A program made the position numbers and the translations under genes. A stretch of DNA of 64,000 nucleotides from an uncultured Dehalococcoidia bacterium (GTDB lineage Bacteria; Chloroflexota; Dehalococcoidia; SZUA-161), in contig CAYGWR010000001.1 of NCBI GenBank assembly GCA_964353645.1, positions 7,091 through 71,090 of the forward strand, read 5' to 3'. Within the stretch, counting starts at the first letter, position 1. The number at the start of each line of letters is the position of its first letter. Below the pieces are notes generated by a model. It ran no database searches and had not been told where the DNA came from. It saw only the letters and a list, made by a program, of their open reading frames with translations. Positions 1,216 to 64,000 of this stretch are shown piece after piece.

Positions 1216-1291
1216 GGCTACAATCCACAACTATGGCACTGAGGCAAGCACCTTTTATAGATTCTGTTCAATCTAATTATGGAGTAGGACC

Positions 1292-2554: not shown

Positions 2555-2624
2555 TCTTCCCCTGTAAAGCAAGGCTCATCGTTGTTACCGCTTTACTTCG
2601 CTGCTATAATAGGAGCGATTTGCC

Positions 2625-3737: not shown

Positions 3738-3755
3738 TTCTAAAAGGAAGAGATC

Positions 3756-5030: not shown

Positions 5031-5036
5031 GGAGGA

Positions 5037-5342
5037 TTGATAATGGCAGAGTATCGGTTTGAAAGAGAATGCCGCACTGCACACTCTGAGGCTTATCTCA
5101 TAGTTGCTAGTGACGAGCAAGTGGGCAAAGTGGATATTCATTTCACCCCTTCGATAGTCTACGCTACCCTGTGTATCGGGGAAAATATGACCCAAGATGA
5201 AATTCAAGACCTTATTGATACCATTGACGAAGATTTGGTGATGTCGGCTGACGTTGCCCGCGATGATTTCATCGTGACTGTGTATCAGGGGCGAGAAGTC
5301 GGCGTCTTCAGCGATGAGGAGTTTGAGGAAGAGGAAGAATAA
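5037..5342 (+). CDS. hypothetical small acidic protein (poly-Glu C-terminus)
   Basis: The ORF follows proA with a 6-nt gap. I recognised no motifs. Coding status rests on position alone. Confidence 0.35.
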   Translation: MIMAEYRFERECRTAHSEAYLIVASDEQVGKVDIHFTPSIVYATLCIGENMTQDEIQDLIDTIDEDLVMSADVARDDFIVTVYQGREVGVFSDEEFEEEEE

Positions 5343-5355
5343 GTCCCAGGTATGG

Positions 5356-6294: not shown

Positions 6295-6296
6295 AA

Positions 6297-16069: not shown

Positions 16070-16837
16070 TTGCTTTTTTTATCCGGACATGATATGCTCC
16101 AGCCCGACATAGCTTCCGTCGAAGGGGGACATGTGCAGGGCAAACAGAGAAGGTTGACCGAGGAGAGACTGCCCCCTTATTTATCTTACCGGGAGTGGCA
16201 GAAGTTGCTCAGTGAGTTGTCCGTACATAATCCGCCCTCGCGCTTTGATTCCAGCTACTTTGATGCCCTGAAGATGACCAAGAGCTGCCGGTCTATGTTG
16301 AAGGGCACGCTTCTTTTCTTGGACTTGATGTCTGCCGACGGCATTCCTTCACCCAGATTACATCAGTTGGTCAAGTCGGACGGGGAATCGCGACGAGCAG
16401 CCCTAGCGGAAATGGTGCGGAATGCCTATGGGCCCTTGTTCACAGAGGTAGATGTAGCGCGAACCACCCAGGCGCAGATGAAGGAATATTTTGATAGCCA
16501 GGGGGCCAGTGGCGACATCGGGCGTAAATGCTTGAGCTTCTTCTTCGCTATTTCTGCCGATGCTAACATACCGCTTTCTCCACACCTCAGGAAATCGGCT
16601 TCTAGGGGGAGAGGGAGGAAGAGTGTCATCGGTGAGGTGCTCAAGCCCAGGGTTAGCAAGTCGGCTGACTCAAGTGGTAATGTGGAGTGGGAAAGGATGT
16701 TGCTCGAAAAATTCCCCAATTTCAACCCGGAATGGTCAGACGAGCTTAAAAAGAAATGGTTTGATGCCTTCAAGTTTTTGAAGAAAAGCCTTGAGATATC
16801 CGCTCCCCGAAGGAGAGCCTCCACCTCCAGGCGCTGA
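16070..16837 (+). CDS. hypothetical protein, basic C-terminus
   Basis: An ORF transcribed divergently from ftsA. No motif was recognised and the true start is uncertain. Confidence 0.35.
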   Translation: MLFLSGHDMLQPDIASVEGGHVQGKQRRLTEERLPPYLSYREWQKLLSELSVHNPPSRFDSSYFDALKMTKSCRSMLKGTLLFLDLMSADGIPSPRLHQLVKSDGESRRAALAEMVRNAYGPLFTEVDVARTTQAQMKEYFDSQGASGDIGRKCLSFFFAISADANIPLSPHLRKSASRGRGRKSVIGEVLKPRVSKSADSSGNVEWERMLLEKFPNFNPEWSDELKKKWFDAFKFLKKSLEISAPRRRASTSRR

Positions 16838-23667: not shown

Positions 23668-24945
23668 ACCTTTAATATGCTCGGTCTTGGGCAGCCCCTG
23701 GAGTGCCCAGGGGCTTGTTTTGTTAACTTCAATATTAACTAGCTGACCGGGGCAATCATCGTCCTTCTCGAAGAATACCAGCTTATCTGTCCTGGTGCGG
23801 CCATACCATTTCGCCTTCTTCTTCCCTTCAACTAGGACTTCCAGGGTATGGCCCAAGAGTCGGGCATTGATCTCTGAGGCTATTTTGCTCTGTAATTCCT
23901 CAACCTCTTGCAGCCGCCTCCGCTTTTCGGAGAGGGAGACATTGTCCTTAAGCCTTTTCGCTGCCAGCGTGCCAGGCCGCGCTGAGTAGGCGGCGATATG
24001 AACGGTATCGAATCTGAGGTCGGAGAGAAGATCGATAGTTCTTTGGAACTGCCCCTCGGTTTCCCCGGGAAAGCCTACGATGATATCGGTAGCAAGAGCG
24101 ACGGTGGGGATGGCAAAGCGTATTTGTTCGACCAACTCCCGATAAGACTGCACGGTGTAGCCTCGCCCCATTGCTCGTAGGATTTCATCGTCGCCACCTT
24201 GAACCGGGAGGCTGATGTGCTCACAAACCTTTTCCAGCGAGGCCACAGCCTGGATAAGCTTCCGGCTCATATCCTTGGGGTGGGAGGTCAAAAAGCGAAT
24301 CCGTGTTAACCGCTCGATGGAGTTCAGTTCCTGCAATAAATCAGCTAAGCCGGGCTTATTAGGGAGATCATGCCCGTAAGAATCAACATTTTGCCCTAGC
24401 AGGGTGATCTCTTTCGCTCCCCGCTCCACAAGGCGCTCTACTTGGCAGCGCAACTCAGCAATGGGGTGGCTTTTCTCCCTTCCCCGCCGGTAGGGGACGA
24501 TGCAGTATGAGCAGAAGTTATCACAGCCCTCGATGATGGTTACGAACGCTGTTGGTGAAAGTGTGGGGGCCGTGAAGCTGTCTGATGCCTCCGGAGCCCG
24601 TGCTTTTGCCAGTTCCAGAAGCTCGTTAAATTGCCCTGGCTTCAGGAAGAGGTCAACATGGGGGAAACGGTGTTTCAGTTGGTCAACCTCCGAGTCGACC
24701 ATACAACCGGCAATGGCTACTACAGTATCCGGGCTGAGCCTCTTAAGCTCTTTCAGCGAATCCAGCTTACCGAGAACACGGTTCTCGGCGCTTTGTCGCA
24801 CCACGCAACTGTTGAGCACTATGAGGTTGGCCTTCTCTATGTCATGAGCAGACTGGTAGCCCAACCTCTCAAGGCTGGCTGCCAGTTGCTCAGAGTCAGC
24901 TTGGTTCATCTGGCAGCCTATGGTCCATATATGGTAATACGCCAT
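23653..24945 (-). CDS. miaB: tRNA-i6A37 methylthiotransferase (radical SAM, MiaB-type)
   Basis: It has the N-terminal MTTase domain, the radical-SAM CxxxCxxC motif (CDNFCSYC) and a TRAM C-terminus. Confidence 0.9.
   Translation of the reverse strand: MAYYHIWTIGCQMNQADSEQLAASLERLGYQSAHDIEKANLIVLNSCVVRQSAENRVLGKLDSLKELKRLSPDTVVAIAGCMVDSEVDQLKHRFPHVDLFLKPGQFNELLELAKARAPEASDSFTAPTLSPTAFVTIIEGCDNFCSYCIVPYRRGREKSHPIAELRCQVERLVERGAKEITLLGQNVDSYGHDLPNKPGLADLLQELNSIERLTRIRFLTSHPKDMSRKLIQAVASLEKVCEHISLPVQGGDDEILRAMGRGYTVQSYRELVEQIRFAIPTVALATDIIVGFPGETEGQFQRTIDLLSDLRFDTVHIAAYSARPGTLAAKRLKDNVSLSEKRRRLQEVEELQSKIASEINARLLGHTLEVLVEGKKKAKWYGRTRTDKLVFFEKDDDCPGQLVNIEVNKTSPWALQGLPKTEHIKGLAQR
23693..23724 (+). 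terminator. candidate intrinsic terminator for dapA (9-bp GC-rich hairpin + T-rich tail), overlapping the 3' codons of convergent miaB
   Basis: The stem AGCCCCTGG pairs with CCAGGGGCT around the loop AGTGC, and TGTTTTGTT follows. Confidence 0.45.
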
Positions 24946-25101
24946 GATATCCCTTTTGCTCTTTGAATATAATTCTTCCTTATTATATCAGATATGCTTT
25001 CGCTCTCAGAACTAAGAAACAGCTTATTCTGACATTACTGCAATCGAACGTCCTTTATCCCAGACCGAGACAAATGATGATTCATCAAGCACTTGATTGA
25101 G

Positions 25102-25131
25102 TTGACAATAACTGAAGTTGTAGCCTAACAT
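25102..25131 (+). promoter_or_regulatory. possible sigma70-like promoter (TTGACA - 18 nt - TAACAT) upstream of the methyltransferase gene
   Basis: The hexamers sit in an AT-rich stretch about 60 nt upstream of the ATG at 25190. Confidence 0.3.
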
Positions 25132-25189
25132 TCTGTGATGGTCGGTATATCCCAAGACGATTGGAGCACTGAAGGGTAGGGCAGGGCAC

Positions 25190-26104
25190 ATGTTTTCTAA
25201 CACTCTAGTGGCACTTAATCATGCTTGCTATGCTTTCGGTTGCAGAATTTTCAAGAGAGTGGAAAAGGCAAGGGCTTGGCCCGAGGCTGAGTTTTTGATT
25301 GACAATGTTCCCAATGAGATTTGGGGGGAGGTGGGAGACAACTATACTAACTGGGTTTATCAACAAGGATTTTTTGCAGCCCTGATAAAGTGCTGCACTA
25401 AAAATGAGTCTTTAAAGATAGTTGATTTTGGCTGTGGCCATGGGAAACTAGCTCCAGTAAGTGTATTCTTTACTCATCCGGAAGGTGGGTACTTGGGAAT
25501 AGATATACAAGAGGACTACATTAATTATTGCAGGCGTAAATATTCTCAATTGCCAAGAGTTAAATTCCATGTTTCAAAAGATTACAATCCTCTTTATTCT
25601 CCGCAACAACAAAGCGCTGTCGCTGGCAGTAAATCTTATGGGGAAGACTGGCCTGTTATTGCCGAGTCCATTGATGTCGTAATAGCAATCTCTGTTTTTA
25701 CTCATCTGCGGGAAGCGGATGCCTTCGGGTATATCAAGAAAATACATGATATCCTAAAACCCAACGCTTTAGCTATCTTAACCTGCCACATTGTTGAGGA
25801 ACCAAGGAAACAGCCCGGTTTTATATTTAAGTATAATCCGTTTCTCGTCAGCTTGTTTAAATTTCCCACACCGTTGCCAACAAGCTACAGCTGGTTTACG
25901 AGCAACACAGCATTACCTGAATCAGGTATAGCTATAAATATGGCAGGGTTGAATAGCTTGATACAAGGAAAGTTCAAGGTGGAGCGTATCATGAGAGGTT
26001 CTGCAACGGGGGGTAATGATCCTCTGCCTCAAGATGTTGTTGTGTTAAGGAAATTGACCTTGCAAATTGATAAGGTCCAGGAGACCATTGATATACCGCT
26101 TTAG
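25190..26104 (+). CDS. class I SAM-dependent methyltransferase
   Basis: A glycine-rich motif I (VDFGCGHGKL) sits in a Rossmann-like context. The gene looks AT-richer than its flanks. Confidence 0.6.
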   Translation: MFSNTLVALNHACYAFGCRIFKRVEKARAWPEAEFLIDNVPNEIWGEVGDNYTNWVYQQGFFAALIKCCTKNESLKIVDFGCGHGKLAPVSVFFTHPEGGYLGIDIQEDYINYCRRKYSQLPRVKFHVSKDYNPLYSPQQQSAVAGSKSYGEDWPVIAESIDVVIAISVFTHLREADAFGYIKKIHDILKPNALAILTCHIVEEPRKQPGFIFKYNPFLVSLFKFPTPLPTSYSWFTSNTALPESGIAINMAGLNSLIQGKFKVERIMRGSATGGNDPLPQDVVVLRKLTLQIDKVQETIDIPL

Positions 26105-26263
26105 AATCTTTGCAGAAATAAGGCTCGGTATTGGGTCAACACGTAATTCTTTTCGCCATTTTTCCATTCGTCTTAATACTCACTGCCTGAGAGAAGAAGG
26201 TTTTCACTTTGAGAGAGAAAGGGGAGGAGAAAGTTCAATGACGAGCAGAAGATTTTAACAAAC

Positions 26264-26355
26264 TGGCGGAGGGAATGGGATTCGAACCCATGAGGGAGGT
26301 TTCCCCCCCTAACCGCTTAGCAGGCGGCCGCACTAGACCACTATGCGATCCCTCC
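26264..26355 (-). tRNA. tRNA-Ser (anticodon GCU), type II with long variable arm, CCA encoded
   Basis: The reverse complement reads GGAGGGATCGCATAGTGGTCTAGTGCGGCCGCCTGCTAAGCGGTTAGGGGGGGAAACCTCCCTCATGGGTTCGAATCCCATTCCCTCCGCCA. It has a 7-bp acceptor stem, the anticodon loop CUGCUAA and a GGTTCGAATCC T-loop. Confidence 0.85.
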
Positions 26356-26600
26356 TACCTACGACCCTATTATAACCACAAAAGTTCGTTTTTCCAACCA
26401 CGAAAACATATCAGTCTGGAGGTTTCAATAGATAATTTTCTCCGCAATAAGTAGTCTATTTCAGGGGAAGGCATACCGAGGAGATCACCGAAAACATATT
26501 GATTGTGTTCTCCAATCCCCCGGTATACAATTAGTTTGGACACCTTAACTTAATGCAATCAGCGACTCAAATCCCAAATAAATCCCTGGAGGACAATTGA

Positions 26601-50292: not shown

Positions 50293-51030
50293 ATGCGCTA
50301 CGCAATCATCTCCGACATCCACAGCAACCTCACCGCTTTCCAGGCTGTGCTCGAGGATATTGAGGCGAGGGGGGGATTCGAGCGTATTTGGTGCCTGGGG
50401 GACATCGTCGGTTATGGCCCTGACCCCAAGAAGTGCATCGAGCTGCTTCGTCAATATGACCATATCTGTGTGGCTGGAAACCACGACTGGGGCGCGATAG
50501 GTAAGATAGGTATCGACGATTTCAACCCTGAGGCTGCTATGGCCTGCCGCTGGACGGGGCAGCAGTTGGAGCAGCAGGATGTAGATTACCTGGCTAATCT
50601 CCCACCGGTAATCAGCGAAGGCAATTTCACATTGGCGCATGGCAGCCCTCGTGAGCCGATATGGGAGTACCTGGTTTCCATACACGTTGCCCAGGTTAGT
50701 TTCAATTACTTTCAGACCAAGTTCTGCCTAGTGGGACATAGCCACGTACCGCTAGTTTTCGAGTCACTTGCTCCTGACGATGATTGTTTAGTCCATGAGT
50801 TTCCCACGGATACCCCTCTTACCCTTGACCGAAACCGTCTAATCATCAATCCCGGAGGCGTGGGTCAGCCCCGGGACAGCGACCCCCGTGCCAGCTACGC
50901 TATCTACGATAGTGAGCATAATGTAATCTGGCATCACCGCGTGCCCTATGATGTTGCCAGCACACAGCATAGGATGAGAGAATACGGGTTACCTTACGGG
51001 CTCGTGGCAAGGCTGAGCCACGGCTGGTGA
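50293..51030 (+). CDS. calcineurin-like metallophosphoesterase (YfcE-like)
   Basis: MRYAIISDIHSN, GDIVGYGP and GNHD motifs. The start was taken at the ATG at 50293, inside the longer ORF 50266..51030. Confidence 0.75.
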   Translation: MRYAIISDIHSNLTAFQAVLEDIEARGGFERIWCLGDIVGYGPDPKKCIELLRQYDHICVAGNHDWGAIGKIGIDDFNPEAAMACRWTGQQLEQQDVDYLANLPPVISEGNFTLAHGSPREPIWEYLVSIHVAQVSFNYFQTKFCLVGHSHVPLVFESLAPDDDCLVHEFPTDTPLTLDRNRLIINPGGVGQPRDSDPRASYAIYDSEHNVIWHHRVPYDVASTQHRMREYGLPYGLVARLSHGW

Positions 51031-51130
51031 GAGTTGAATTTACGGCAATAGTATGATATACGGGTCGGTTCAGTGGTACTCTTGTTGTTTGGGTTTATAA
51101 TTCCATTTCTGTCTCTGTTCCTGAGCAATT

Positions 51131-51817
51131 TCAGCCCTGCCATAGCCTGTGAGCTTCCTCAAGGTCACCAGGAAAATCGATATCGGACCAGGGGCGGTCC
51201 GTGGCCAGCACATTCACAAATAGACCGCTGTCAACCAGGCCTTGGATGAGTTGAGGGAATGTGGTGCCCAAATTGGTATGGGCAATCTGTTCAAGCTGAC
51301 TAACTAGTGCCGGAATGGCATTTTTAGGGAACATGGCCACACCAATGAACTCTCCAAACGGCTTAGTCACGTCTTTACCTATAGCTTTTACAAGCCCGTT
51401 CTGCAGGACGACTTTCTCGGCCTCTCTGTCCATGCTTCTCGGATCCACGACTAAAAGGATATCATTCCCTCTACTCACAACCTCTTTAATCAGATTAGCT
51501 TCAAATAAGATGTCATCGTAGATCAATAAGAAGCCTGAACCCAACTCCTTTCTCACCAGCCAGAGATGCATTGCCACATTGCATATTTCGTAAAATGGAT
51601 TGAAAACACAAGACGCCCTTCCTGTGCAAAACTGCTCCACTTGGTCAGCCCCGAAACCAGTTATCACCAGTCGATCGCCGACACCGGCTTGTTCCAGTGC
51701 CTCAATCTGGCGGGCCAGGATAGCTTTGCCCCCCACCTCCAAGAGGCTGACTGGTTTGTGCTTGGTGAGTGGCAGCAACCGAGGACTTCTCGCTGCCGCA
51801 GTTATAATAGCCCTCAT
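51131..51817 (-). CDS. LicC/IPCT-like sugar-phosphate/phospho-alcohol nucleotidyltransferase paralog 1 (degenerate signature loop)
   Basis: MRAIITAAARSPRLLPLTKHKP aligns with the (G)xG(T/S)RL loop of the other two copies but reads AARSPRL. A shared C-terminal motif WSDIDFPGDLEEA is present. Confidence 0.65.
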   Translation of the reverse strand: MRAIITAAARSPRLLPLTKHKPVSLLEVGGKAILARQIEALEQAGVGDRLVITGFGADQVEQFCTGRASCVFNPFYEICNVAMHLWLVRKELGSGFLLIYDDILFEANLIKEVVSRGNDILLVVDPRSMDREAEKVVLQNGLVKAIGKDVTKPFGEFIGVAMFPKNAIPALVSQLEQIAHTNLGTTFPQLIQGLVDSGLFVNVLATDRPWSDIDFPGDLEEAHRLWQG

Positions 51818-51819
51818 TT

Positions 51820-52662
51820 TTAGCTTACTACTCCTGTGATAAGGCGCATGCGTATAAAAGCGCTTATACGATCAATGCAAATTACTGCGATGACCATTAC
51901 AAGTATAACAGTCAAGACTGCCGGGTTGTCAAAAAGGCGCGTGGCGTTGATGAGTTCAACTCCAATGCCGCCGGCTCCTACGAATCCTAATACGGTGGCA
52001 GCCCGGAAATTGTGTTCAAGGTAGTATAAAGTATAGCCAGCAAATAGAGGCCTTACCTGCGTCAGGATACCGTAGTAAATCGTCTGGATACGATTGGCAC
52101 CGGTTGAAGCTACGGCTGTGACTAGTTCGGCGTTTGTGGCTTCGATGGCCTCCGAAAAAAACCTACCGAGAGCGCCGATGTTGTGAACTGTCAGAGCTAG
52201 AACTCCAGGAAACGGACCAAGTCCCACCATAGAGACAAATACCAAGGCCCAGATTATCTCATTGATGCCTCGACAGAGGTCGAAGAATGTACGGGTAGCC
52301 TGGTAAACAGGCCAGTAAGGCATTACATTGCGGGCCGCTAGAAATGAAAGCGGCAGAGCTATTATAGCGCCAAACGTAACGCCCATTATAGCCATCTGGA
52401 TGGTCGTACCCAGCGGGCCCATAAGTCCACCGAGTATGCCCATATCCGGAGGGAACATGCGCTTTACATAGTCATACACGTAGGGCATGCCACGGAAGAA
52501 AGTAACTGGATTGGACTCAGTGCCCCTAATCGCCCATACATAAATGGCGACAATGGCCACCATCAAAGTGATATGGCGGAGCTTAGTTCCTAAATGCTCA
52601 ACAGGTATCTTTATCCTAGAATCCCCTCTTGCCATAGAGAATCCAATCCTCCGTCTCGCCAT
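51820..52662 (-). CDS. phnE: phosphonate-type ABC transporter permease
   Basis: A 280-aa permease with about six helices and the EAA-like loop (ALGRFFSEAIEAT). It is adjacent to the phnC and phnD homologs. Confidence 0.8.
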   Translation of the reverse strand: MARRRIGFSMARGDSRIKIPVEHLGTKLRHITLMVAIVAIYVWAIRGTESNPVTFFRGMPYVYDYVKRMFPPDMGILGGLMGPLGTTIQMAIMGVTFGAIIALPLSFLAARNVMPYWPVYQATRTFFDLCRGINEIIWALVFVSMVGLGPFPGVLALTVHNIGALGRFFSEAIEATNAELVTAVASTGANRIQTIYYGILTQVRPLFAGYTLYYLEHNFRAATVLGFVGAGGIGVELINATRLFDNPAVLTVILVMVIAVICIDRISAFIRMRLITGVVS

Positions 52663-53428
52663 AGATGTCTATTATATCCTTATCTGTAAGCTCAGCGGGG
52701 GTGTTATCGAAAACGATCTGCCCTTCCCTGATTCCAACCAAGCGAGTTGCATATGCTATGGCCATCTCGAGGAAGTGGAGGCTGGCCACTAGAGTCATGT
52801 CATGCTCCGTGCAGATATCCTTGATGAGGTCCATGATCTCCTTCATCAACTTTGGGTCCAAGCTCGACACTGGCTCGTCTGCAAGGAGGATACTGGCACG
52901 TTGCGCCATAGCCCGGGCTATCGCAACCCGCTGCTTTTGTCCACCACTCAAGTCGCTGACCCGTTTATTAGCGAACTTCTCAAGCCCTACTCTTCTTAGG
53001 CAGTCAGTAGCTGTAGCAATATCTTCTTCGCTGAATCGCCCAACTATACTCTTAAATGTGCCCACATACCCAAGCCTGCCCACCAATACGTTCTTTAGCG
53101 ATGTCGCCCCATCAATCAGGTTGAAATTCTGGGAGATCATTCCTATTTGGCGACGAACCAGCTCGACCTCTTTCGTGGGCAGACTGGTGATTTCTTTTCC
53201 ATCAATGAAGACCCTGCCTTTGGTGGGCTTGATGGAAAGGTTTGTACATCGGAGCAGTGTGGACTTGCCAGACCCACTTGAGCCCAGAATCACCACGCGC
53301 TCACCTTTGCTGACCTTCAAGTTGATATCCTTGAGGGCAGCCTCTGTCTTTTTCTTGCCATCGGAGCCGGAAGAGCCTGAGCGAGCCCTTATTGGATAGT
53401 TATGACTGAGTTCCTCTAACCTTATCAC
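52616..53428 (-). CDS. phnC: phosphonate-type ABC transporter ATP-binding protein
   Basis: Walker A GSSGSGKST, ABC signature LSGGQKQRVAIARA and Walker B ILLADEP. Confidence 0.85.
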   Translation of the reverse strand: MIRLEELSHNYPIRARSGSSGSDGKKKTEAALKDINLKVSKGERVVILGSSGSGKSTLLRCTNLSIKPTKGRVFIDGKEITSLPTKEVELVRRQIGMISQNFNLIDGATSLKNVLVGRLGYVGTFKSIVGRFSEEDIATATDCLRRVGLEKFANKRVSDLSGGQKQRVAIARAMAQRASILLADEPVSSLDPKLMKEIMDLIKDICTEHDMTLVASLHFLEMAIAYATRLVGIREGQIVFDNTPAELTDKDIIDIYGETEDWILYGKRGF

Positions 53429-53444
53429 CTCTTCTACCTCTTGT

Positions 53445-54326
53445 CTAAAGACCCAGTAAGTCGCGCGTTTCCCGAATGATATCGTAGTCGGAAGGTGTTA
53501 CCTTCACGTACTTCGCGATGTCTCCCCAGCCTTGAACTGTATAAATAATCTGCTGATCCATGTCAATAAGTGCTTGCTGTATTTTGTCCTTCAGATCCTG
53601 AGGAAGATCTCCTCTGACCACAATAGGCGAACCAGGTATCGGTGATGACTCGTAGATGATAACGTTAACATTTGGGTCAATCTGGCCCGCTTTGACCATG
53701 AGGTTGTACGAAGTATCGCTGTCAGCCCCAGCGTCTACGCTGCCGTTCTTAACGGCAAGCTCAACTGCATTGTGAGTGCCTGCGTAATACGAGGTTGAAA
53801 AGTCTTTCTGGATGTTGATTCCATTATCCAGCAGTATTTTCTTTGGTATCAAACACCCCGATGTAGAGGCTGGGTCTACGAATGCGAATGAGTGGCCCTT
53901 AAGATTATCAAGCGTTTTTATGCCCGAATCTGCTTTGGTGACGAAAACGGTCTTATAGGTCGAGAGGCCACTGTCCCTCCTCACACCGACTACTAGCGGC
54001 TCTGCGCCAGCTTCATCAGCCGCCAATACGTATGTGAAAGGCCCAAACCAAGCGATATCTATGTGCTTATACCGCATGGCCTCGACAGCAGCGGTGTAGT
54101 CGCTGGTTACTTGGAGTGTGACCTCCATATCGAGCTTCTGTGAGAGGTAATCAACCACCGGTTGATATTGGCGTAACATTGAAGCAGCGTCGTCTGCAGG
54201 AATAAGACCCCATCTAAGGACTTTTATCTCACCTTCTCCTTTTCCACCACAGCTCGTCCCACCCAGTGACATGAGAACCAATACAAGGGCAATCACCATA
54301 TACAATACTTTACTGGCCCGTTTCAT
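53445..54326 (-). CDS. phnD: phosphonate/phosphite-type ABC substrate-binding lipoprotein
   Basis: It has a signal peptide plus lipobox (GGTSC) and a PhnD/SsuA-like periplasmic binding fold (DIAWFGPFTYVLA, TSGCLIP). Confidence 0.8.
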   Translation of the reverse strand: MKRASKVLYMVIALVLVLMSLGGTSCGGKGEGEIKVLRWGLIPADDAASMLRQYQPVVDYLSQKLDMEVTLQVTSDYTAAVEAMRYKHIDIAWFGPFTYVLAADEAGAEPLVVGVRRDSGLSTYKTVFVTKADSGIKTLDNLKGHSFAFVDPASTSGCLIPKKILLDNGINIQKDFSTSYYAGTHNAVELAVKNGSVDAGADSDTSYNLMVKAGQIDPNVNVIIYESSPIPGSPIVVRGDLPQDLKDKIQQALIDMDQQIIYTVQGWGDIAKYVKVTPSDYDIIRETRDLLGL

Positions 54327-54437
54327 CGTACGTCTCCTTTTTAAAATTGTAACTTAATCCCATCCTAATATCGCAGTACCGCAACGCGTGCTATCTACAA
54401 AACAGAACTCAAAGATTATTTTAAGAAGACCAGTCCT

Positions 54438-55196
54438 TTAGCTGCTATCGGCGAACTTTCTTCGCGCTTCCTCTAAGTCCTGAGGCGTGTCGATCTCTAT
54501 CCAACCTCCTTTGATATCAACAGTCGTAATTCTGCGCCCTGTGTCCATAAGTTCCTGTAGCATATCGCTTAGATAGGCGCCATCGAGTGATAGGGAGCGA
54601 TGAAAGGGGGCTGCTGGGCGTTCTTTGGCCACCCTGTGGTAGGCATCTCTCATCTCTTGGCTACCCACTCTGCTGAATTTGGCTAAACCTATGAACTCTC
54701 CATAGGCGTTATCAGGTTTAACCACCCCCTTACCTATTGCCGTCACTCTTCCATTATCGACATTGACGAGCTCAGCCTCCGAGACAGGATGCTTGTCGCG
54801 ACCCCTATAGCGCTTACTCCAGTCAATATCTACAGTGAGAACTGAGTCTGCATTCCCACCGTCAAGGAGCTTTGCGACAGTGTCGCTACTATAGATAATA
54901 TCGGAGTATGAGATGATGAGGTCATCATTCATCTCACTTTGGGCGCAGAACAACGATCTCAGTATATTGGTTTTTGCGTAATTAGGGTTCTCGTAGTATG
55001 TAATATCGGGATAGTTAATAAGGTTGCTGTGATAACCTCTTACCACTGCAATCCTGTTAATACCATTGGCCCTAAGAGCATCCAGGGCTCTCTGAAGGAT
55101 CGTCTTGCCGCCAATCTCAAGAAGACATTTTGGCTTTTCATTGGTGAGAGGCCTGAGGCGAGTGCTGGGACCGGCAGCAACTATGATAGCCTTCAT
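54438..55196 (-). CDS. LicC/IPCT-like cytidylyltransferase paralog 2 (canonical signature)
   Basis: MKAIIVAAGPSTRLRPLTNEKPKCLLEIGGK matches the nucleotidyltransferase G-x-G-(S/T)-R-L loop and K of the LicC/GlmU/RmlA fold. It has the C-terminal WIEIDTPQDLEEA. Confidence 0.75.
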   Translation of the reverse strand: MKAIIVAAGPSTRLRPLTNEKPKCLLEIGGKTILQRALDALRANGINRIAVVRGYHSNLINYPDITYYENPNYAKTNILRSLFCAQSEMNDDLIISYSDIIYSSDTVAKLLDGGNADSVLTVDIDWSKRYRGRDKHPVSEAELVNVDNGRVTAIGKGVVKPDNAYGEFIGLAKFSRVGSQEMRDAYHRVAKERPAAPFHRSLSLDGAYLSDMLQELMDTGRRITTVDIKGGWIEIDTPQDLEEARRKFADSS

Positions 55197-55217
55197 GGCA
55201 GCACCTCTAATTACTGA

Positions 55218-56264
55218 CTATTCAACCTTTAGTATCGAATGCAACCGTCTGCTTACCCTGTTGAAATCTTCCAAAGTGTCGATCTCTGCCCAACCACCGT
55301 GAATGTCGATGTGGCGTACCGGATATCCCTGGTCTATCAACTCCTGGATCAGGTCGGTGAAATATGCCTTGTCAGTCGAAGGCGATGTATGAAAGGCCTT
55401 TGACTGGTAATTCTGAATAGCCCAATTGTGGATTGTCTTTAGCGTTTCTGCACCGCTTTTTCTGAATTTTGCCAGCCCGATGAACTCACCATGGGCTTCA
55501 TTGGGTGGTACGAGGCCCTTTCCAATCTTTGTTATTCGGTCTCCTTCAACTCTAACTAATTCAGCATCGGAAACTGGATGCTGGTGGCGTTTGAGGTAGT
55601 GGTTTTGCCAATCGATGTCCACCACAAGCGAGATATCAGACTGGTCCCTGAGCAGCAATTCCAGCACTCCCTTAGTGTATAAAATGTCCGCATAACAGAA
55701 TATGAAATCGTCATCAATCTCGTCTTTGGCATAGAAGAAGGACTTCAAGATACCGGTATTTTTGTAGTCGCTGTTTTCGTAGTACCTGATACCGGGGTAA
55801 CTTATCTTGTCCCCCTGGTATCCCCGTACTAACACGATGTCATATATGCCGCATGCCCTAAGGTTTTCCAGTTGCCTGCTGAGGATGGTCTTATTCCCGA
55901 CCTCCAGAAGACACTCTGGCTTATCCTTGGTAAGGGGCAGCAGGAGGTTACTCTCCCCGGCAGCTACAATGATCGCTTTAATCTTCGGGAATATAGCCAG
56001 TGAGCTGAGGTCGAGCCCGCGCCGAAGGATTTCGTCCAAATAGGCATCCCAAACATCTTGTCCCCGACTCTGGATAATAGCTTCGGCGAGTCTGTCAGCT
56101 AGCTTATCGCCAAGATGATTTAGAATTTTGCGGTGTAACTGTCGGCCGAGTATGGTTGTTATTGTCTCGTCAGCGGACTTAGAAGTTCCATGGCGTAGAC
56201 GCTTGTGTCCCGCCAGACCCTGCGTGGTCTTGAAAATGCCCCCACAGATTTCGCATGTAAACAT
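55218..56264 (-). CDS. C2H2-type zinc finger fused to LicC/IPCT-like nucleotidyltransferase (paralog 3)
   Basis: The N-terminus CEICGGIFKTTQGLAGHKRLRH is a C2H2 finger. After a ~90-aa linker comes IKAIIVAAGESNLLLPLTKDKPECLLEVGNK and a C-terminal WAEIDTLEDF. It is ~45% identical to paralog 2. Confidence 0.7.
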   Translation of the reverse strand: MFTCEICGGIFKTTQGLAGHKRLRHGTSKSADETITTILGRQLHRKILNHLGDKLADRLAEAIIQSRGQDVWDAYLDEILRRGLDLSSLAIFPKIKAIIVAAGESNLLLPLTKDKPECLLEVGNKTILSRQLENLRACGIYDIVLVRGYQGDKISYPGIRYYENSDYKNTGILKSFFYAKDEIDDDFIFCYADILYTKGVLELLLRDQSDISLVVDIDWQNHYLKRHQHPVSDAELVRVEGDRITKIGKGLVPPNEAHGEFIGLAKFRKSGAETLKTIHNWAIQNYQSKAFHTSPSTDKAYFTDLIQELIDQGYPVRHIDIHGGWAEIDTLEDFNRVSRRLHSILKVE

Positions 56265-56639
56265 GAGTACTGAGTATAATACTGAGTTACTGGAAAAATG
56301 TCAATAGTCATTTACGTCTCTTGACAAATGGCGGTGGATAGTGTACCTAAAAAGCACCAGAAATACGGATACAAAGAGAGGTATTTAAGATGAAAAATTG
56401 TTTGAGTTTGGCAGCGATGTCTGTTTTGCCTTCCTTCTACTTGATGTCCCGCGATATGACAGATGCAGCTTTTAGTCACGGAAATGGAATTACGGCCCTT
56501 CAGCTAGCTATCGCTGTGCTGGTAGGAGCGCTTTATACAGCTAATCACTTCAAAGGCAGAATCAAGACGTTTTTTAAGTACTCGTCCTCTAAAAGTAGGA
56601 AGGGGTGAGGGAACGAAAGGCTAGCAGAATAGAATTTGT

Positions 56640-57251
56640 TTATCTATAAATGCTTCGTACATAGCGCACATACTTGATTACGTAGTACAGGGAAACCAGG
56701 AACGTAGCAAGGAGAACAATCTCTGCATAACGCCAGTCGATAATGTGTACCATAATCGTGGGATAAACAAAAGCAGCCAGAAGGTTTGTATCCAGGTGCG
56801 GTATCGTAAAACCGCCTTTCTTCTTTGAGATAAGCCCTACCACAAGAAGTGCAAAAGCTATCAATATCAATCCTGCTGCAAGCAGCCAGTAAGTTTCGAA
56901 CTTAATAGCGAGGCCAACTATTGCGGTATAAACCAGAACGAAATCGGCCAAACCGTCAAAGGTTGCTCCGTAGGTAGTGGTCTTTTTACTTCTCCTGGCA
57001 AAATATCCGTCAAGCAGGTCGGTTATCGCGGCGGCAGCGAAGAGGTAATAGGCAGCATCCGTTCTATTAGAGAATATGAGCCATACAACTACAGGGGCTA
57101 CAACAATCCTGGAGCCGGTAAGAACGTCTGCCAATCTCAAAGCTTTGATGGGCCTTCTCTTCGTTTTCTGAGCAATCTTTGATTCTAGACCCAGTGTTTC
57201 CGGGAACGTGATATAATACCTGACACAAGAAAGAATTGTTGAATCGAGCAT
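56640..57251 (-). CDS. CDP-alcohol phosphatidyltransferase family membrane protein
   Basis: The signature D(x)2DG(x)2AR(x)8G(x)3D(x)3D appears as DLLDGYFARRSKKTTTYGATFDGLADF. It has about six TM helices and is 203 aa. Confidence 0.75.
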   Translation of the reverse strand: MLDSTILSCVRYYITFPETLGLESKIAQKTKRRPIKALRLADVLTGSRIVVAPVVVWLIFSNRTDAAYYLFAAAAITDLLDGYFARRSKKTTTYGATFDGLADFVLVYTAIVGLAIKFETYWLLAAGLILIAFALLVVGLISKKKGGFTIPHLDTNLLAAFVYPTIMVHIIDWRYAEIVLLATFLVSLYYVIKYVRYVRSIYR

Positions 57252-57319
57252 CAGGTAGTTTACACGAGTATAGTGGCAATGTTTTCATGTTGTCAAGATG
57301 TGCAGCTAACGTATAGCAT

Positions 57320-58231
57320 GTGGAAAGCGATCTAGAAACGGATGGTAATATGAAAAAAGATAAACCAAGCGCTACCGCAGAGGCCAACGCTGCTTTCAGG
57401 GCTGCGGAGTTGCTGAGACCAAAGAACGAGCAAGTTTGTGAAGACCGGTTCGCAAGACGTTTCCTCGGCCTGAGATTCGGTATCATAGCCCGGAGCAGAT
57501 TACTTACCGGGATTGCGCGGTGGTACGTTGAGCGAATTATCCCCGGTGCTGCCAATAGCGTGGTGGCTCGAACCAGATATATCGATGATTACTTGAAGCA
57601 GTGTATTGACGCTGGCATAGAGCAACTGGTTATTCTGGGTGCCGGCTATGATTCCAGGGCCTACAGATTTGATGGACTTAAGGCAAGGGTCAGGGTCTTT
57701 GAAGTGGACCATCCCAACACACAGAGGGTTAAAATACAGAAAGTCAAAAAGATATTTGGCTCTCTTCCGAGCCACGTGGTCTATGTCGGGCTGGACCTCG
57801 ACGAAAAGAAGCTCGGGGAAGGGCTTCTGGAAAGCGGCTATGACAAGGGTAAGAAGACCCTTTTCATCTGGGAAGGCGTCACTGTGTACATTATCCCGGA
57901 GGCTGTGGATGAGACCCTGGCTTTTGTGGCTGAGAACTCAGGCAAAGGTAGCTGTATCATTTTCGACTACGCGTTTCAGTCGGCTTTCGATGCAGCTTCA
58001 GAGAGTGGTGACGCCAAGAAGTGGCGGGAAGCTTATGAGCGCAGAGGTGAGCCTCCTAAGTTTGCCTTGAAAGAAGACGCTGTCGGTGATTTCCTCTCTA
58101 AGAGAGGGTTTTATCAAGTGAAAAGTGTCAGCCTGGAGTCGATAAAGAAGACCTACTTCAAAGGGCCTAACGCGAAGAGAAATGTGACGAACCTGGGGGG
58201 GATTGTTCAGGCGACTGTGGTACGCAGGTAA
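57320..58231 (+). CDS. class I SAM-dependent methyltransferase, LCM/TcmP-like family
   Basis: QLVILGAGYDSRAYRF and the EGVTVYI motif are typical of the Ppm1/TcmP O-methyltransferase family. Confidence 0.7.
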   Translation: MESDLETDGNMKKDKPSATAEANAAFRAAELLRPKNEQVCEDRFARRFLGLRFGIIARSRLLTGIARWYVERIIPGAANSVVARTRYIDDYLKQCIDAGIEQLVILGAGYDSRAYRFDGLKARVRVFEVDHPNTQRVKIQKVKKIFGSLPSHVVYVGLDLDEKKLGEGLLESGYDKGKKTLFIWEGVTVYIIPEAVDETLAFVAENSGKGSCIIFDYAFQSAFDAASESGDAKKWREAYERRGEPPKFALKEDAVGDFLSKRGFYQVKSVSLESIKKTYFKGPNAKRNVTNLGGIVQATVVRR

Positions 58232-58326
58232 TAGGCGGTTCCTGGGCTGGCCAGCCGTATTGACTGAACTGCCTTCAGTTGGTATATTTGAACAGGTTGA
58301 AAATTACCTGCAGAGAAGGAGTATAA

Positions 58327-59517: not shown

Positions 59518-59715
59518 ATGCCTATAATCAGGATCGAGATGTGGACAGGCAGGACTCATGCTCAAAAGGCGGAGCTGGCTCGCGTTATCACCGAGGCCAT
59601 GGTAACCATAGCCCACACCACGCCGGAGGCGACCACAATTGTCTTTGAGGATATCGCAAAAGAGAACTGGGCTACCGGCGGCGTCCTGGCGTCCGATACC
59701 AAAGCCAAGAAATAG
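59518..59715 (+). CDS. 4-oxalocrotonate tautomerase family protein
   Basis: N-terminal Pro1 (MPIIRIEMW...) and a 65-aa length are typical of 4-OT family monomers. Confidence 0.7.
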   Translation: MPIIRIEMWTGRTHAQKAELARVITEAMVTIAHTTPEATTIVFEDIAKENWATGGVLASDTKAKK

Positions 59716-60722
59716 CTCCTGTTGAACCTGCAAAGCCCCTTAGTCGAAAAATAGGGCGGTGAAAGCGCTGGCGGGTATTTTATACGTCCCGGACGGTGAT
59801 TTTCCCAGCGAAATGCCCCGCAGGCCTTCAATGGTTTGCGGGGATAGCTTTTACCAGTCTATGGTCGCACTATATATCTTATGTAGAGTTGACAGCTTTG
59901 ATTTTGGCAGGTTTTTTGACCTGGCCTGTATGGACTTTTAGATACGTTCGGAAATGAGTCTGCTCTGCTTCCCCCAAAATACGAAAGTCCGTTTTGCGGT
60001 ATCAGCGTTTTCTGTGATATGCCGGCGGTTATAAAATCTATGGGATATGATTTTTGGAGAAAAACCCTGGGGATATTTTAAGGGGTGGTTAAGGTGGGCT
60101 GTCAATAAGAAAATGTCGCACCCCCCGAAAATCGGCACCCGAAAGCCTGAAAACCCGGCTCTGCGTCCTCCGCGGTCTCTGCGGTGAACTCAGGCCGTAT
60201 TCACGAAGCCCTAGAATTGAAATCCAGGCGTCTGGCGAGGCAAACCTGACCTTTTCTACCTGCTGGCAACCAGGTCAACCCTGAAGGCTCACTTTTCAGG
60301 GGCACTTTTTGTGGGAATTTTTGTCGGCCGGTTTTTGGGTAACCCTTACCAGCGCCGGGGTCGCAGCACCTCGACATAACAAGATACGGGGGCTTGACCA
60401 TTGATAAAATTTTGGGTTTTGGGCATGTTGATCCGATTAGTCTTTGTCAGTTTTTATCGTCAGTGTTTTTTTAATTTGATTTGTGGTTGATGTGGCGTGA
60501 GGTACTGAGATTGCTAGACACCTCGCACCGTAAAGCTTTAAGTAACGTTATGTAAAGTTGTTAAATAGTAGAGGGTTAATAGGGTGAGGTGGCAATGGAA
60601 TCCAGTGGTTTCGTGCTTGAGACGAAACGAGAAGACAGAGCGGGATTAACAAGAAAAGGCTTTGTTGAGATTAGTTTGAGCCAGATTTTTAGAGGAAACA
60701 AAAATTAAGGAATGTCACCTGA

Positions 60723-61640
60723 GTGGTGGTCATTGACAAGCAGCTGATGCTAGTTCAAGATACACGTAAGCGCATATTAGGGAGAAGGAAAACCCAGGGA
60801 ATTTTTCAATCCAAGCTATTAAGAGGAAGGTGCTTGAAACATCTTGACTGGCTTAAGGATACAAAAGAGAGACTAAAAACGGTTGACGGTAAGATTGTGC
60901 AGGTACTCGAATTCCGTTACCAAAAAGACGACGGTATCCTCTCAGATTGGGCAAAGCATTTTAGGAATCATTATTGCTCAGACAGCGAAATAGACAGTCT
61001 GATAAGAGGCACCAAATATACTCGGGCAGAATATTTAAACCGAATAAAGTTCCCCGATGCTTCAACAAAGCCAGGTCCAAGCATCCGTGCCGGCGACTTC
61101 GGTGAAGTTTTGATAGCGGATTACCTTGAATATATTTTAAAGTACTGGGTTCCACGTACTCGATATAATGATAAGGCTATACGTAATGAATCTACAAAAG
61201 GTTGCGATATCATAGGGTTTAAAATCCTAAATGAAGAAAAGGACTCAACAAAAGATACAATGGCCATATTTGAATCGAAAGCCCGCTTTACAGGAAGTAA
61301 ACCCCAAAATAGGCTTCAAGACGCAGTGATCGATTCTGTAAAGGATGTTACAAGAAAAGCAGAGTCATTGAATTTTATCAAGCAAAAATTGATTGACAGA
61401 CAACAAATCAAGGACGTACCTAGAGTGGAAAGATTTCAGAACCCAGAAGATCGACCTTACAGAGAAATTCCCGGAGCTGTGGCACTATTCTCAACAGAGT
61501 GTTACGACGCGAATTGTGTCTCAGAGACCGATGCATCAATTCATCCGAACGCACGAAATCTGATGCTTATCGTAATTCATGGGAATGATATGATGAAACT
61601 CGTCAACGAACTTTATCGGAGAGCTGCAGATGAAGCCTGA
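60723..61640 (+). CDS. HamA-like protein: candidate PD-(D/E)xK nuclease (DUF1837-like) partner of the downstream helicase
   Basis: Ordered acidic/lysine motifs consistent with a restriction-endonuclease-like fold are present: GDFGEVLIADYLE ... GCDIIGF ... IFESKAR. Its stop overlaps the helicase start (ATGA). The start could be GTG 60723 or ATG 60744. The region is AT-rich. Confidence 0.5.
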   Translation: MVVIDKQLMLVQDTRKRILGRRKTQGIFQSKLLRGRCLKHLDWLKDTKERLKTVDGKIVQVLEFRYQKDDGILSDWAKHFRNHYCSDSEIDSLIRGTKYTRAEYLNRIKFPDASTKPGPSIRAGDFGEVLIADYLEYILKYWVPRTRYNDKAIRNESTKGCDIIGFKILNEEKDSTKDTMAIFESKARFTGSKPQNRLQDAVIDSVKDVTRKAESLNFIKQKLIDRQQIKDVPRVERFQNPEDRPYREIPGAVALFSTECYDANCVSETDASIHPNARNLMLIVIHGNDMMKLVNELYRRAADEA

Positions 61641-64000
61641 AACTAGATCTCAGACTCTCTTAAGCATCACACGTTCAAAGGCAAAAATGTATGAATATGG
61701 TGTTCCGCAGGAATACCATATTGCTATTCCAATTGACCCCGCGAGATTATTCAGCCTCTCGATAGGTTTACTTGGAGACCTTGCAGCACAAACAAATTCG
61801 AGATCATTTAGTGAGGAATATCTGAAAGAACTTAGAGAAAATCTACAATTCTCGGCTCGCTTCTTTGATGCTTATCTACAGTCACGTTTGAATCAGCATC
61901 TTGACCCTTATCTAATACTATTAGCGTCTGCCTCTTACTACTTGTGTGGATTACCTGGTAGCTCACGTATTCTTGCGAGACACCTTAATGAAGACCATAT
62001 TGATTTAAATTGCTTAGGTTTGGAATCCCTGCTTCTCTGGCTCCTTCGGGGGAATATATCGAACTACACCAATGTGCAAAGTGAATTATATGGAGAACAC
62101 ATTAATGACATTTCAAGTAGTCTAATTGAATTCTATAGAAGTGGTAGTGGCAAGGACGACCTTTTTGAGAATGCTTCTAAGCTAAGAAGAAAGGCATACG
62201 ATGTTGGGACACCGCGACAATTGCTTTTTGCAGACGTGATCTGCGCCATAGTAAAGAAATTTGTTGATAACTCTGCTTGGTTTTGCTTGCCGCAATACTC
62301 TGACATTCCCGTAGAACAATGGTCAGATGTGCTAAGGAAAACTACTTTCATGAGAGAGCTTTGGCCTGCTCAACAACTACTGGGAGAAAAGGGTGCATAT
62401 AAAGGGAAGTCAGCAGTGGTACAGATGCCCACAAGTGCGGGAAAAACACGAGCAACTGAAATAATTATACGGAGTGCATTCTTAGCTAATCGAACGTCTT
62501 TGGCTGTAATTGTGGCTCCTTTCAGAGCCTTGTGCCACGAAATCAGAAATAGCCTTTCAGGAGCCTTTCGTGGAGAGCCGGTAAATATTGATGAATTGAG
62601 CGATGTTCTGCAAAGCGATTTTAATATAAATGAATTGCTTGGACAGAAGCAGATTCTGGTGATTACGCCTGAGAAACTTGTCTATGTTCTCCGTCATAAT
62701 CCTGAAATTGCTGAACAAATCGGTTTGTTGATTTATGATGAAGGACACCAGTTCGACACAGGAATACGTGGCATTACATATGAGCTTCTGGTTACTTCTT
62801 TAAAATCGATGGTTCCTAAGGGGATCCAGACTATACTCATCTCAGCCGTAATAATGAATGCTGATTCTATAGGTAAATGGCTCTACGGAGATGATTTTGA
62901 GTTAGTTTACGGCACTAAATTGATACCTACTTATCGTACTATTGCTTTCACAAGTTGGTTGGAAAGACGGGGACGACTTGAATTTATAAATCCAGAAGAC
63001 CCAGATAAGGGCGAATTCTGGGTTCCAAGAGTTATAGATCAGCAGAGACTAAATCTAAAAGGAAAAGAAAGGAAAGAGAGAGAATTTCCAAACAAGGAAG
63101 ATGGTCAAACCATTGCACTATTTTTGGGATTGAAGCTAGTTGCTAATGGAAGCATTGCAATTTTCTGTGGTAGAAAGGATAGTGCAGAAAACTTATGTGA
63201 GAAAGTAGTAGATGCTTATGATAGAGGGTTAACCATAAGGAAACCTATTGAGTTTTCCGATAAGGACGAGGCCAAACGACTCTGGTATCTCTACAGCCGT
63301 AATCTTGGCGATGAAGCTGCGGCTACCAGAAGTGCCTATTTAGGCGTCTTCACCCATCATGGTAATATGCCCCATGGGATTCGCCTTGCTGTCGAACACG
63401 CAATGAAGAATGCCAGAGTCGGGTTTGTTATCTGCACGTCCACCTTAGCTCAAGGTGTCAACTTACCTATTCGCTACTTATTAGTTACTGGTATCTATCA
63501 AGGGGTCGAGCCAATTAAAGTTCGCGATTTTCACAATCTGCTAGGACGTGCTGGTAGAGCAGACCAACACACTGAAGGAAGCGTGATATTCGCAGATCCG
63601 GATATCTATGACAATCGAAATACGCGGGAGGGAAAATGGAGGTGGAGAAAATACAAAGAACTTCTTAATCCAGATAATTCCGAACCTTGTATAAGTAGCT
63701 TGTTGTCAATTTTTGACCCTTTGTACAGTCATGATGGCGAGAGTCGCCTCCAGATTGGGGCTGTGGATATAGTTGCTGCGTACGTTAACAACACATTAGA
63801 TGAGTTCATGGGGAAGTTGTCTTCGCAATACGAACAGATTGGATTTACCAAAGACGTACTTGAGAGCCAGATCACAGAGAAAACAAATATCTTCTCATCA
63901 ATCGAAAATTACTTAATGGCTCATTGCGACGAATCTAAGGCAAAGGTAGACAGTGGAGGCGCAGAACAATTGGCGGTGGAGACCCTTGCGTATTTCCTGG
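61637..64000 (+). CDS. HamB-like superfamily-2 helicase (DEGH box), 3' end beyond window
   Basis: A continuous ORF of more than 788 codons. Motif I is MPTSAGKT (~62431), motif II is DEGH (~62741), motif V-like is TSTLAQGVNLP, and motif VI is LLGRAGR. A ~260-aa N-terminal domain precedes the RecA core. Confidence 0.6.

Follow-up and report, generated by a model that had tools for sequence, protein, structure and literature searches.

The closest described relatives of the locus studied here are Hachiman anti-phage systems, i.e., pairs of a DUF1837 protein (HamA) and a superfamily 2 (SF2) helicase (HamB). The locus lies at the right-hand end of a 64,000-nucleotide (nt) stretch of DNA from an uncultured Dehalococcoidia bacterium (Chloroflexota; contig CAYGWR010000001.1, positions 7,091 to 71,090), referred to in full length as the window, and we are highly confident that it represents a complete two-gene Hachiman system of type I-A, which is the majority clade in the classification of PMC11914072, with 86.4% of the HamA representatives. 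Its member HamAB of E. coli DEC14B consists of two overlapping genes, a DUF1837-only HamA with intact PD-(D/E)xK site and an SF2 HamB helicase with a Walker A GKT motif (PMC11914072). The same features are found here, although in another host phylum; the likeness is drawn from published features.

The best solved relative of both proteins is the HamAB complex of E. coli ECOR31 (8VX9, 8VXA, 8VXC, 8VXY; PMC12278908), which shares the DEGH helicase site, the ExK nuclease site and a HamB N-terminal region ahead of the helicase core. It nevertheless belongs to a distant subfamily, i.e., the HamB sequence alignment covers the helicase core only (residues 241-671) and ECOR31 HamB has 1174 amino acids compared to 1038 here. 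In the Hachiman system of S. thermophilus, termed ‘type III-B’ (PMC13064477), the essential HamA residues are located at nearly equal positions, and our HamB retains the lysine of motif I and the aspartate of motif II that are essential in the HamB of that system. That system is often linked to a repressing PezAT toxin-antitoxin (PMC13064477), while no such genes are present in the cassette described here.

Plasmid-borne HamAB pairs are known from other phyla, namely from Bacillus thuringiensis, Leptospira interrogans and E. coli (e.g., NZ_CP010578.1). Their HamB proteins show 50-53% identity to ours at 99-100% coverage and adjoin genes that bear the label ‘Hachiman antiphage defense system protein HamA’ or DUF1837, i.e., the gene order is the same, but the pair studied here is chromosomal and situated near the gene for transfer-messenger RNA (tmRNA). 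A HamA of Bacillus amyloliquefaciens is 61-62% identical to ours. AbpAB of E. coli K-12 (type I-B; PMC11914072, PMC10732053) likewise combines a DUF1837 protein with a Ski2-like helicase in a response to DNA damage. In contrast to our HamA, which has an intact site and no extra domain, AbpA has a Cap4 nuclease domain at its N-terminus, and its DUF1837 domain is devoid of the catalytic residues (PMC11914072). Finally, the housekeeping helicases Hel308 and Ski2 have the SF2 core in common with HamB but neither its family-specific N-terminal region nor a partner nuclease.

Families, folds and active sites of the two proteins

An initial annotation of this DNA, made by reading the raw sequence, had proposed a type I Hachiman pair, and profile searches place both proteins accordingly: the first open reading frame (ORF) is assigned to HamA/DUF1837 by Pfam and PADLOC and the second to HamB by PADLOC. 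HamA reaches 43.1 bits for Pfam PF08878 (HamA/DUF1837; gathering cutoff 25) and 379.7 bits (E = 1.7e-114) for the PADLOC HamA1 profile PDLC00161, where query residues 39-304 are aligned to profile positions 6-270 of 271. The Pfam scan of HamA revealed no domain besides DUF1837 and thus no N-terminal effector domain. A homolog search returned 2384 relatives, and the best 120 all carry PF08878.

With regard to the active site, the D...D...ExK arrangement expected from the initial annotation is found in the motifs GDFGE, CDIIGF and FESK, and the respective residues D88, E91, D125, E147 and K149 (numbering of the 268-residue protein, see below) are invariant in 38 homologs as well as in a 14-homolog alignment. 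Judged by motif and spacing, their counterparts in S. thermophilus HamA are D90, E93, D127, E147 and K149, for which alanine at any of these positions abolishes defence (PMC13064477). E147/K149 furthermore correspond to E138/K140 in HamA of ECOR31 (PMC12278908) and to E150/K152 in HamA of DEC14B (PMC11914072).

At the level of structure, the HamA sequence on its own shows a weak match to E. coli HamA (8vx9_A, E = 0.1), while a profile of its homologs matches 8vx9_A/8vxy_A with E = 8e-05 and aligns the GD..E, D and E.K stretches. The AlphaFold2 model of the 268-residue protein is confident, with a predicted local distance difference test (pLDDT) value of 91.1 and a predicted template modelling (pTM) score of 0.90. 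When compared to the PDB using Foldseek, this model has a single significant match, which is again HamA 8vx9_A (E = 2.1e-06, probability 1.00), aligned over full length (273 columns) with template modelling (TM) scores of 0.59/0.61. The restriction-nuclease-like protein is thus placed among HamA folds by its structure as well.

Confidence in the model is low in one place only, residues 115-120 with pLDDT below 50, which coincides with an invariant loop, R117-N118-E119-S120. It is aligned in or near residues 102-117 of E. coli HamA, i.e., the region contacting HamB, such that the modelled loop may be ordered only in the complex.

For HamB, Pfam reports DEAD, ResIII and Helicase_C domains. The PADLOC profile HamB1 (PDLC00188) is matched with 1118.7 bits over profile positions 1-793 of 1037, compared to only 96-130 bits for the HamB2 profiles. 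An N-terminal extension of about 260 residues had been noted initially, and indeed motif I (PTSAGKT) starts only at residue 267. The extension is matched by the HamB-specific N-terminal PADLOC profiles PDLC00189 (positions 1-322 of 322, E = 6.8e-128) and PDLC00183, while the alignment to E. coli HamB (8vx9_B) starts only at residue 241. In 8VX9, the region ahead of the core is a helical bundle to which HamA is bound. Motif II reads DEGH, as had been claimed. Motif VI had been given as QxxGRxGR; its first residue is an asparagine instead, i.e., the full motif is N-L-L-G-R-A-G-R (NxxGRxGR). K272 of motif I and D370 of motif II are both retained; in the systems studied experimentally, their counterparts are required (PMC12278908, PMC13064477, PMC11914072). 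Among solved structures, 8vx9_B of E. coli ECOR31 is the closest relative (E = 3.2e-44), followed by Hel308 (1.4e-27).

The assignment to type I-A, which makes the type I call of the initial annotation more exact, follows the scheme of PMC11914072, since there is neither a third gene nor an N-terminal effector domain on HamA. That is, no further ORF, and hence no type II marker hamC (DUF3223), is found from the end of the conserved upstream block to the next downstream gene, and we rejected an AbpAB (type I-B) identity given the intact active-site residues and the lack of an extra HamA domain.

Gene models and extent of the cassette

The coordinates of all features are compiled in Table 1. The genes hamA and hamB are adjacent and co-oriented, and the overlapping stop and start described initially are confirmed: the hamB ATG (61630) precedes the end of the hamA TGA (61638-61640), which yields an overlap of 11 nt.

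Table 1. Coordinates of the features discussed, given as window positions unless another contig is named (L002, close relative; L082 to L094, related metagenome contigs).
Sequence	Feature	Position	Strand	Remarks
Window	Border block, conserved, non-coding	59716..60619	.	Left flank of the variable slot, outside the Hachiman island
Window	tmRNA-like segment, 19 nt	~60081-60099		Non-collinear with the 36-nt segment
Window	tmRNA-like segment, 36 nt	60342-60377		Resembles pseudoknot region of L002 tmRNA, same strand
Window	Cassette	~60620 to ~64786		~4.2 kb
Window	Cassette-specific leader upstream of hamA	60620..60833	+	Hachiman-less relatives lose homology from ~60620
Window	hamA, DUF1837 PD-(D/E)xK nuclease	60834..61640	+	Probably 268 amino acids; PF08878, PADLOC HamA1
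Window	HamA motif GDFGE	61092		D88/E91 at 61095-61106
Window	HamA R-N-E-S loop	61182-61193		Residues 117-120
Window	HamA motif CDIIGF	61203		D125 at 61206-61208
Window	HamA motif FESK	61269		E147/K149 at 61272-61280
Window	hamB, Ski2/Hel308-like SF2 helicase	61630..64000	+	Cut by window end; 790 of 1038 amino acids inside window
Window	HamB motif I, PTSAGKT	62428-62448		Residues 267-273
Window	HamB motif II, DEGH	62737-62748		Residues 370-373
Window	HamB motif VI, GRAGR	63544-63558		Residues 639-643
Window	tRNA-Ser(GCT)	26264-26355		
Window	Metabolic indel, 7.2 kb	51030-58260		Absent from L002
L002	Complete tmRNA gene	16131-16485		~150 nt past the FAD gene
L085	Cargo: same Hachiman pair			
L090	Cargo: PADLOC HEC-01 candidate pair	775-2605		AAA_15/21 ATPase + DUF4276
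L082	Cargo: trypsin-like protein	900-1769		Related to PADLOC candidate PDC-S45
L093	Cargo: trypsin-like protein	3694-4563		Related to PADLOC candidate PDC-S45
L087	Cargo: BrnT/CopG-like toxin-antitoxin pair, 441-residue protein of no family, methyltransferase	983-3541		Toxin and antitoxin both under Pfam curated cutoffs
L089; L091; L094	Cargo: MBL/RMMBL-fold hydrolase (456-530 amino acids) + protein of ~300 amino acids	1615-4024; 3956-6441; 1712-3260		Motif-plus orientation
L092	Cargo: 286-residue protein			Function unassigned

HamA had been described as a protein of 305 amino acids, which is merely the longest possible ORF (60723..61640, GTG start). Most homologs comprise 268-272 residues and cover about 88% of this query. 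In the alignment, the first residues of several of them, MKH.DWL, fall precisely on codon 38 of the long ORF, while the N-terminal extensions of the remaining ones, including the 37-codon stretch present here, are not conserved. Codon 38 is a TTG (60834) that is preceded by the ribosome-binding site AAGAGGAAGG. Given both the aligned homolog starts and this site, HamA probably has 268 residues and starts at that TTG.

With regard to HamB, initially estimated at 800-900 residues, the full length is 1038 residues. This is taken from the Logan contig L001 (4629 nt), which encodes an identical HamA and agrees with the window in 3570 of 3570 shared bases. On L001, hamB ends at the window equivalent of 64746, i.e., 746 nt past the window, and 42 nt later a convergent oxidoreductase gene (the FAD gene in the following) is reached at its stop codon; the C-terminus of its product matches FAD_binding_2, and this gene is conserved in relatives. 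The expectation that further defence genes may follow beyond the window edge is therefore not borne out: the low-GC island holds hamA and hamB only and ends about 750 nt beyond the window.

The leader upstream of hamA presumably contains the promoter and takes in the 37 extra codons of the longest ORF (from GTG 60723). It is 99.5% identical to the Hachiman-bearing contig L085, and position 60763 within it is the sole mismatch of the whole cassette between both sequences. A 37-residue ORF upstream of hamA that is called on L001 (window 60595-60708) was rejected as spurious; it is probably no gene since its ATG is an ATA in the relative L002 and it straddles the cassette junction.

In agreement with the initial annotation, the GC content profile is not flat but shows a sharp shift in both overall GC content and GC content at third codon positions (GC3) at both ends of the pair. 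GC content drops to 0.40-0.42 from about 60.4 kb on, which marks the lowest-GC 4.3-kb stretch of the whole window. That is, GC contents of 0.408 (hamA) and 0.418 (hamB) compare to 0.50-0.55 for the upstream genes (methyltransferase, hbd, 4-OT) and 0.56 for the downstream gene, and GC3 is 0.37/0.38 in hamA/hamB versus 0.56-0.68 in the flanking genes. The second-lowest GC patch (window 24000-26400, about 0.45) was also considered as an island and dismissed, as its genes are all ordinary (MiaB-like radical SAM enzyme, methyltransferase, tRNA-Ser, MFS transporter).

The description of a gene-free, AT-richer stretch of about 1 kb ahead of the pair holds in part. No credible ORF is found within 59716-60833 (1.1 kb), but only the last ~430 nt are AT-rich (GC content 0.40, compared to 0.504 over 59716-60400). 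Furthermore, the part from 59716 to about 60620 is conserved in related genomes without Hachiman and is thus flank rather than island.

A variable slot near the tmRNA gene

To compare the locus among relatives, we used a close relative (L002, an uncultured Chloroflexota metagenome-assembled genome), which was found by a genome scan with the flanking Hbd protein and whose Hbd is 96% identical. Window and L002 share their gene order across hbd, 4-OT and the gene-free stretch as far as about 60621, and collinearity resumes at the FAD gene (64786 onward). At the site in between, hamAB is missing, and 1.96 kb with a PMT_2-type (glycosyltransferase-like) membrane protein is found. Together with the compositional break, this absence at the same site supports horizontal acquisition of the pair, as had been suggested initially. 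The tmRNA gene (ssrA) of L002 is complete and located close to the FAD gene.

In addition, metagenomes were scanned for a 22-nt word taken from the conserved part, which yielded 13 contigs, such that these 22 bases are invariant by ascertainment. In all 13, homology of the block stops at about 60560-60660, mostly at 60621-60622. One of them (L085) carries the same Hachiman pair; 11 other related contigs show different cargo after the common border block and no hamAB (Table 1). Among these cargoes, a metallo-beta-lactamase (MBL) fold hydrolase recurs with a partner of about 300 residues, for which neither Pfam nor PADLOC reports a match; the two genes may form a defence pair not yet characterised. 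The variable part of six contigs (L082, L087, L089, L090, L092 and L093) contains 30-120 nt copied from the tmRNA 3' end, a pattern that serial integrations at ssrA would be expected to leave, and L093 also contains a full tmRNA gene. Since the cargo differs among relatives and tmRNA 3' fragments are scattered among it, we consider the site a variable slot near ssrA, and the Hachiman pair is one of several alternative cargoes of this slot.

A further difference between the window and L002 is found upstream of the slot, where 7.2 kb of the window is absent from L002, which has about 313 nt there. This is a metabolic indel, not a defence-related one: the segment encodes a phosphonate-type ABC transporter (binding protein, permease, ATPase), three MobA-like nucleotidyltransferases, a CDP-alcohol phosphatidyltransferase and an LCM-type methyltransferase.

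We next turn to the block that always forms the left border of the slot. It spans about 900 nt, is present in all 15 sequences (including L002 and the 13 metagenome contigs) and is kept at 70-90% identity. A coding relic was rejected, given 8-17 stops per frame, no ORF above 83 codons and no 3-periodicity. A structured RNA is not supported: RNAalifold yields a covariation term of +1.04 with just 7 of 115 pairs changed on both sides, and folding z-scores of +0.28 and -0.81 for the two strands are no better than for shuffled sequences. ARAGORN and Rfam (at gathering threshold) report only a tRNA-Ser(GCT) in the window and nothing beside the island, and no Rfam match was found for 59650-60900 at E <= 1. 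Neither did the block match viral or phage DNA in IMG/VR or INPHARED.

A resemblance to tmRNA is, however, observed for a 36-nt segment, which agrees with the pseudoknot region of the L002 tmRNA in 31 of 36 positions (score 47 versus a shuffle maximum of 29), and for a second segment of 19 nt. A tmRNA pseudogene is doubtful, given a single significant 36-mer, a 19-mer that is out of order and no match to a tmRNA model; the two segments may be a relic of rearrangements at ssrA. One might further suppose that the block is a functional element, i.e., an unrecognised regulatory or RNA element or a tmRNA-derived recombination ‘landing pad’ for integrase-free cassette swaps. This idea is motivated by the way in which strains that are otherwise identical diverge as a mosaic within the block, by the abrupt loss of homology at a shared point near 60620 and by the recurrent pair of MBL hydrolase and ~300-residue protein. 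We regard it as rather unlikely. If true, the block and the ssrA-side flank would let these Chloroflexota exchange Hachiman, HEC-01, trypsin-like, MBL and toxin-antitoxin-like cassettes.

Concerning the arrival of the cassette, an integrase-mediated island at ssrA was rejected for hamAB, since the surroundings of the pair contain neither an integrase gene nor a tRNA or tmRNA, and flanking repeats do not exceed 8 nt. That is, the longest word shared as direct or inverted repeat across the hamAB junctions has 8 nt, and the search for a tmRNA 3' fragment from hamB to the FAD gene gave only chance words of 9-11 nt. Earlier integrase events at the locus are nevertheless plausible, since ssrA 3' fragments occur in the slot of relatives and ssrA lies about 150 nt past the FAD gene of L002.

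Comparing the window with L085, we observe 99.5-100% identity in hbd/4-OT and a single mismatch in 1849 nt of the cassette. Within the border block, identity decays from 96.8% to 84.4% (60301-60619) toward the junction, with a 55-nt indel at 60001-60300. We read this pattern as recombination breakpoints inside the block, i.e., the cassette was probably exchanged through homologous recombination between conserved flanking sequences and not brought in by an integrase. A cassette dropped into a diverged background does not fit, given that hbd/4-OT are near-identical as well and the border block alone is diverged. As an alternative, the mosaic between the two sequences could stem from metagenome assembly. 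Beyond this locus, HamA relatives with 44-52% identity are encoded on five IMG/VR viral contigs. Since, in addition, the plasmid HamB homologs adjoin HamA/DUF1837 genes, this Hachiman subfamily is clearly mobile.

Putative mechanism, rival explanations and meaning

For ECOR31, it was reported that the HamB N-terminal domain holds HamA and that a 3' single-stranded end triggers ATP hydrolysis, by which HamA is activated (PMC12278908). By homology with the characterised systems of E. coli and S. thermophilus, the HamA nuclease and the DEGH helicase HamB of the present pair would form a heterodimer. The family-specific N-terminal domain of HamB would keep HamA bound, and intact double-stranded DNA would be surveyed by the complex. 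Damaged DNA or a free 3' single-stranded end, as arising in phage infection, would enter the helicase, and ATP binding and hydrolysis would lead to HamA-dependent DNA cleavage. Phage and host DNA would be degraded together, i.e., the outcome would be abortive infection.

Several observations weigh against the reading as a complete and active type I-A system. For this organism, the formation of a complex, its trigger, the activity of the nuclease and protection from phages are what we infer by homology. The published accounts also disagree on the active species: HamA is released to act alone according to PMC12278908, while in other accounts HamA alone is inactive and the HamAB complex is an ATP-stimulated nuclease (PMC11914072, PMC13064477). 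HamA resembles its solved E. coli counterpart only distantly (16% identity in the structural alignment, TM of about 0.6, root-mean-square deviation of 6.2 Å). The final 248 residues of HamB lie outside the window and stem from the separate though identical public contig L001. The acquisition route is likewise deduced, in that no integrase, tRNA or flanking repeats surround hamAB. Finally, purifying selection (the ratio of non-synonymous to synonymous substitution rates, dN/dS) between window and L085 is not computable since there are no coding substitutions between the two copies.

This last point also leaves room for a Hachiman-derived relic or silent pair, i.e., intact and recently acquired genes that are not expressed or confer no defence in this Chloroflexota host, because selection is not assessable from identical copies. 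In addition, the search for sigma-70-like promoters gave none ahead of hamA, the sole plus-strand site is located inside hamA, and the number of sigma-70-like sites is no higher than in shuffled sequences. We still deem a silent pair improbable: both ORFs are full length with respect to the PADLOC profiles, all catalytic and ATPase residues are intact, a good ribosome-binding site and the overlapping operon structure are kept, and the same cassette is observed in at least three independent datasets.

Even less support is left for another Hachiman flavour with extra parts, i.e., type II with HamC/DUF3223, type I-B/AbpAB or an extended system controlled by a toxin-antitoxin or by trypsin-like and MBL proteins. 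Such variants do exist (PMC11914072, PMC13064477, bioRxiv 10.1101/2025.09.03.673762), and trypsin-like and MBL genes do occupy the same slot in relatives. There, however, they are alternative cargo in other genomes and not neighbours of the pair. Since no third gene is situated between border block and FAD gene, HamA has no extra N-terminal domain (its 37-codon extension is not conserved) and keeps its active site, and the HamB2 profiles score far below HamB1, we consider these variants very improbable.

The housekeeping reading, in which an unrelated accessory nuclease is encoded upstream of a DNA-repair helicase of Hel308, Lhr or RecQ type, can practically be set aside: Hel308-type models are the top NCBIfam matches, and Hel308, Ski2 and Brr2 structures come after HamB in the PDB list, but the scores of 87-131 bits stay far under the equivalog cutoffs of 887-1216 (NF002654, ATP-dependent DNA helicase, 130.6 bits, cutoff 887; the named Hel308 model, 86.9 bits, cutoff 1200; RecQ, 21 bits, cutoff 640; RecG, 11.5 bits, cutoff 796; Lhr-type models also below the Hel308 score), HamB-specific profiles match including the N-terminal domain, the pair is absent at the syntenic site in L002 and from the 11 other contigs, and its GC3 deviates from that of its neighbours.

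This Hachiman system of type I-A was thus correctly picked out by reading raw sequence, and gene models are gained for one more such pair, namely a HamA of 268 residues (from the TTG at 60834) and a HamB of 1038 residues. For defence biology, the system is routine, i.e., it is recognised by PADLOC and Pfam, and relatives already bear the name HamA in NCBI-derived records. The pair itself is an ordinary, already well-described system that is captured by existing profiles. The added value is modest and lies in the context, a slot near the tmRNA gene whose defence-type cargo differs across uncultured Chloroflexota genomes, and nothing but this ssrA slot, i.e., the border block and the alternative cargoes, merits closer study. 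It offers a place to seek uncharacterised systems, e.g., the pair of MBL hydrolase and ~300-residue protein, and the genomes that carry the slot form a natural set for the study of cassette exchange.

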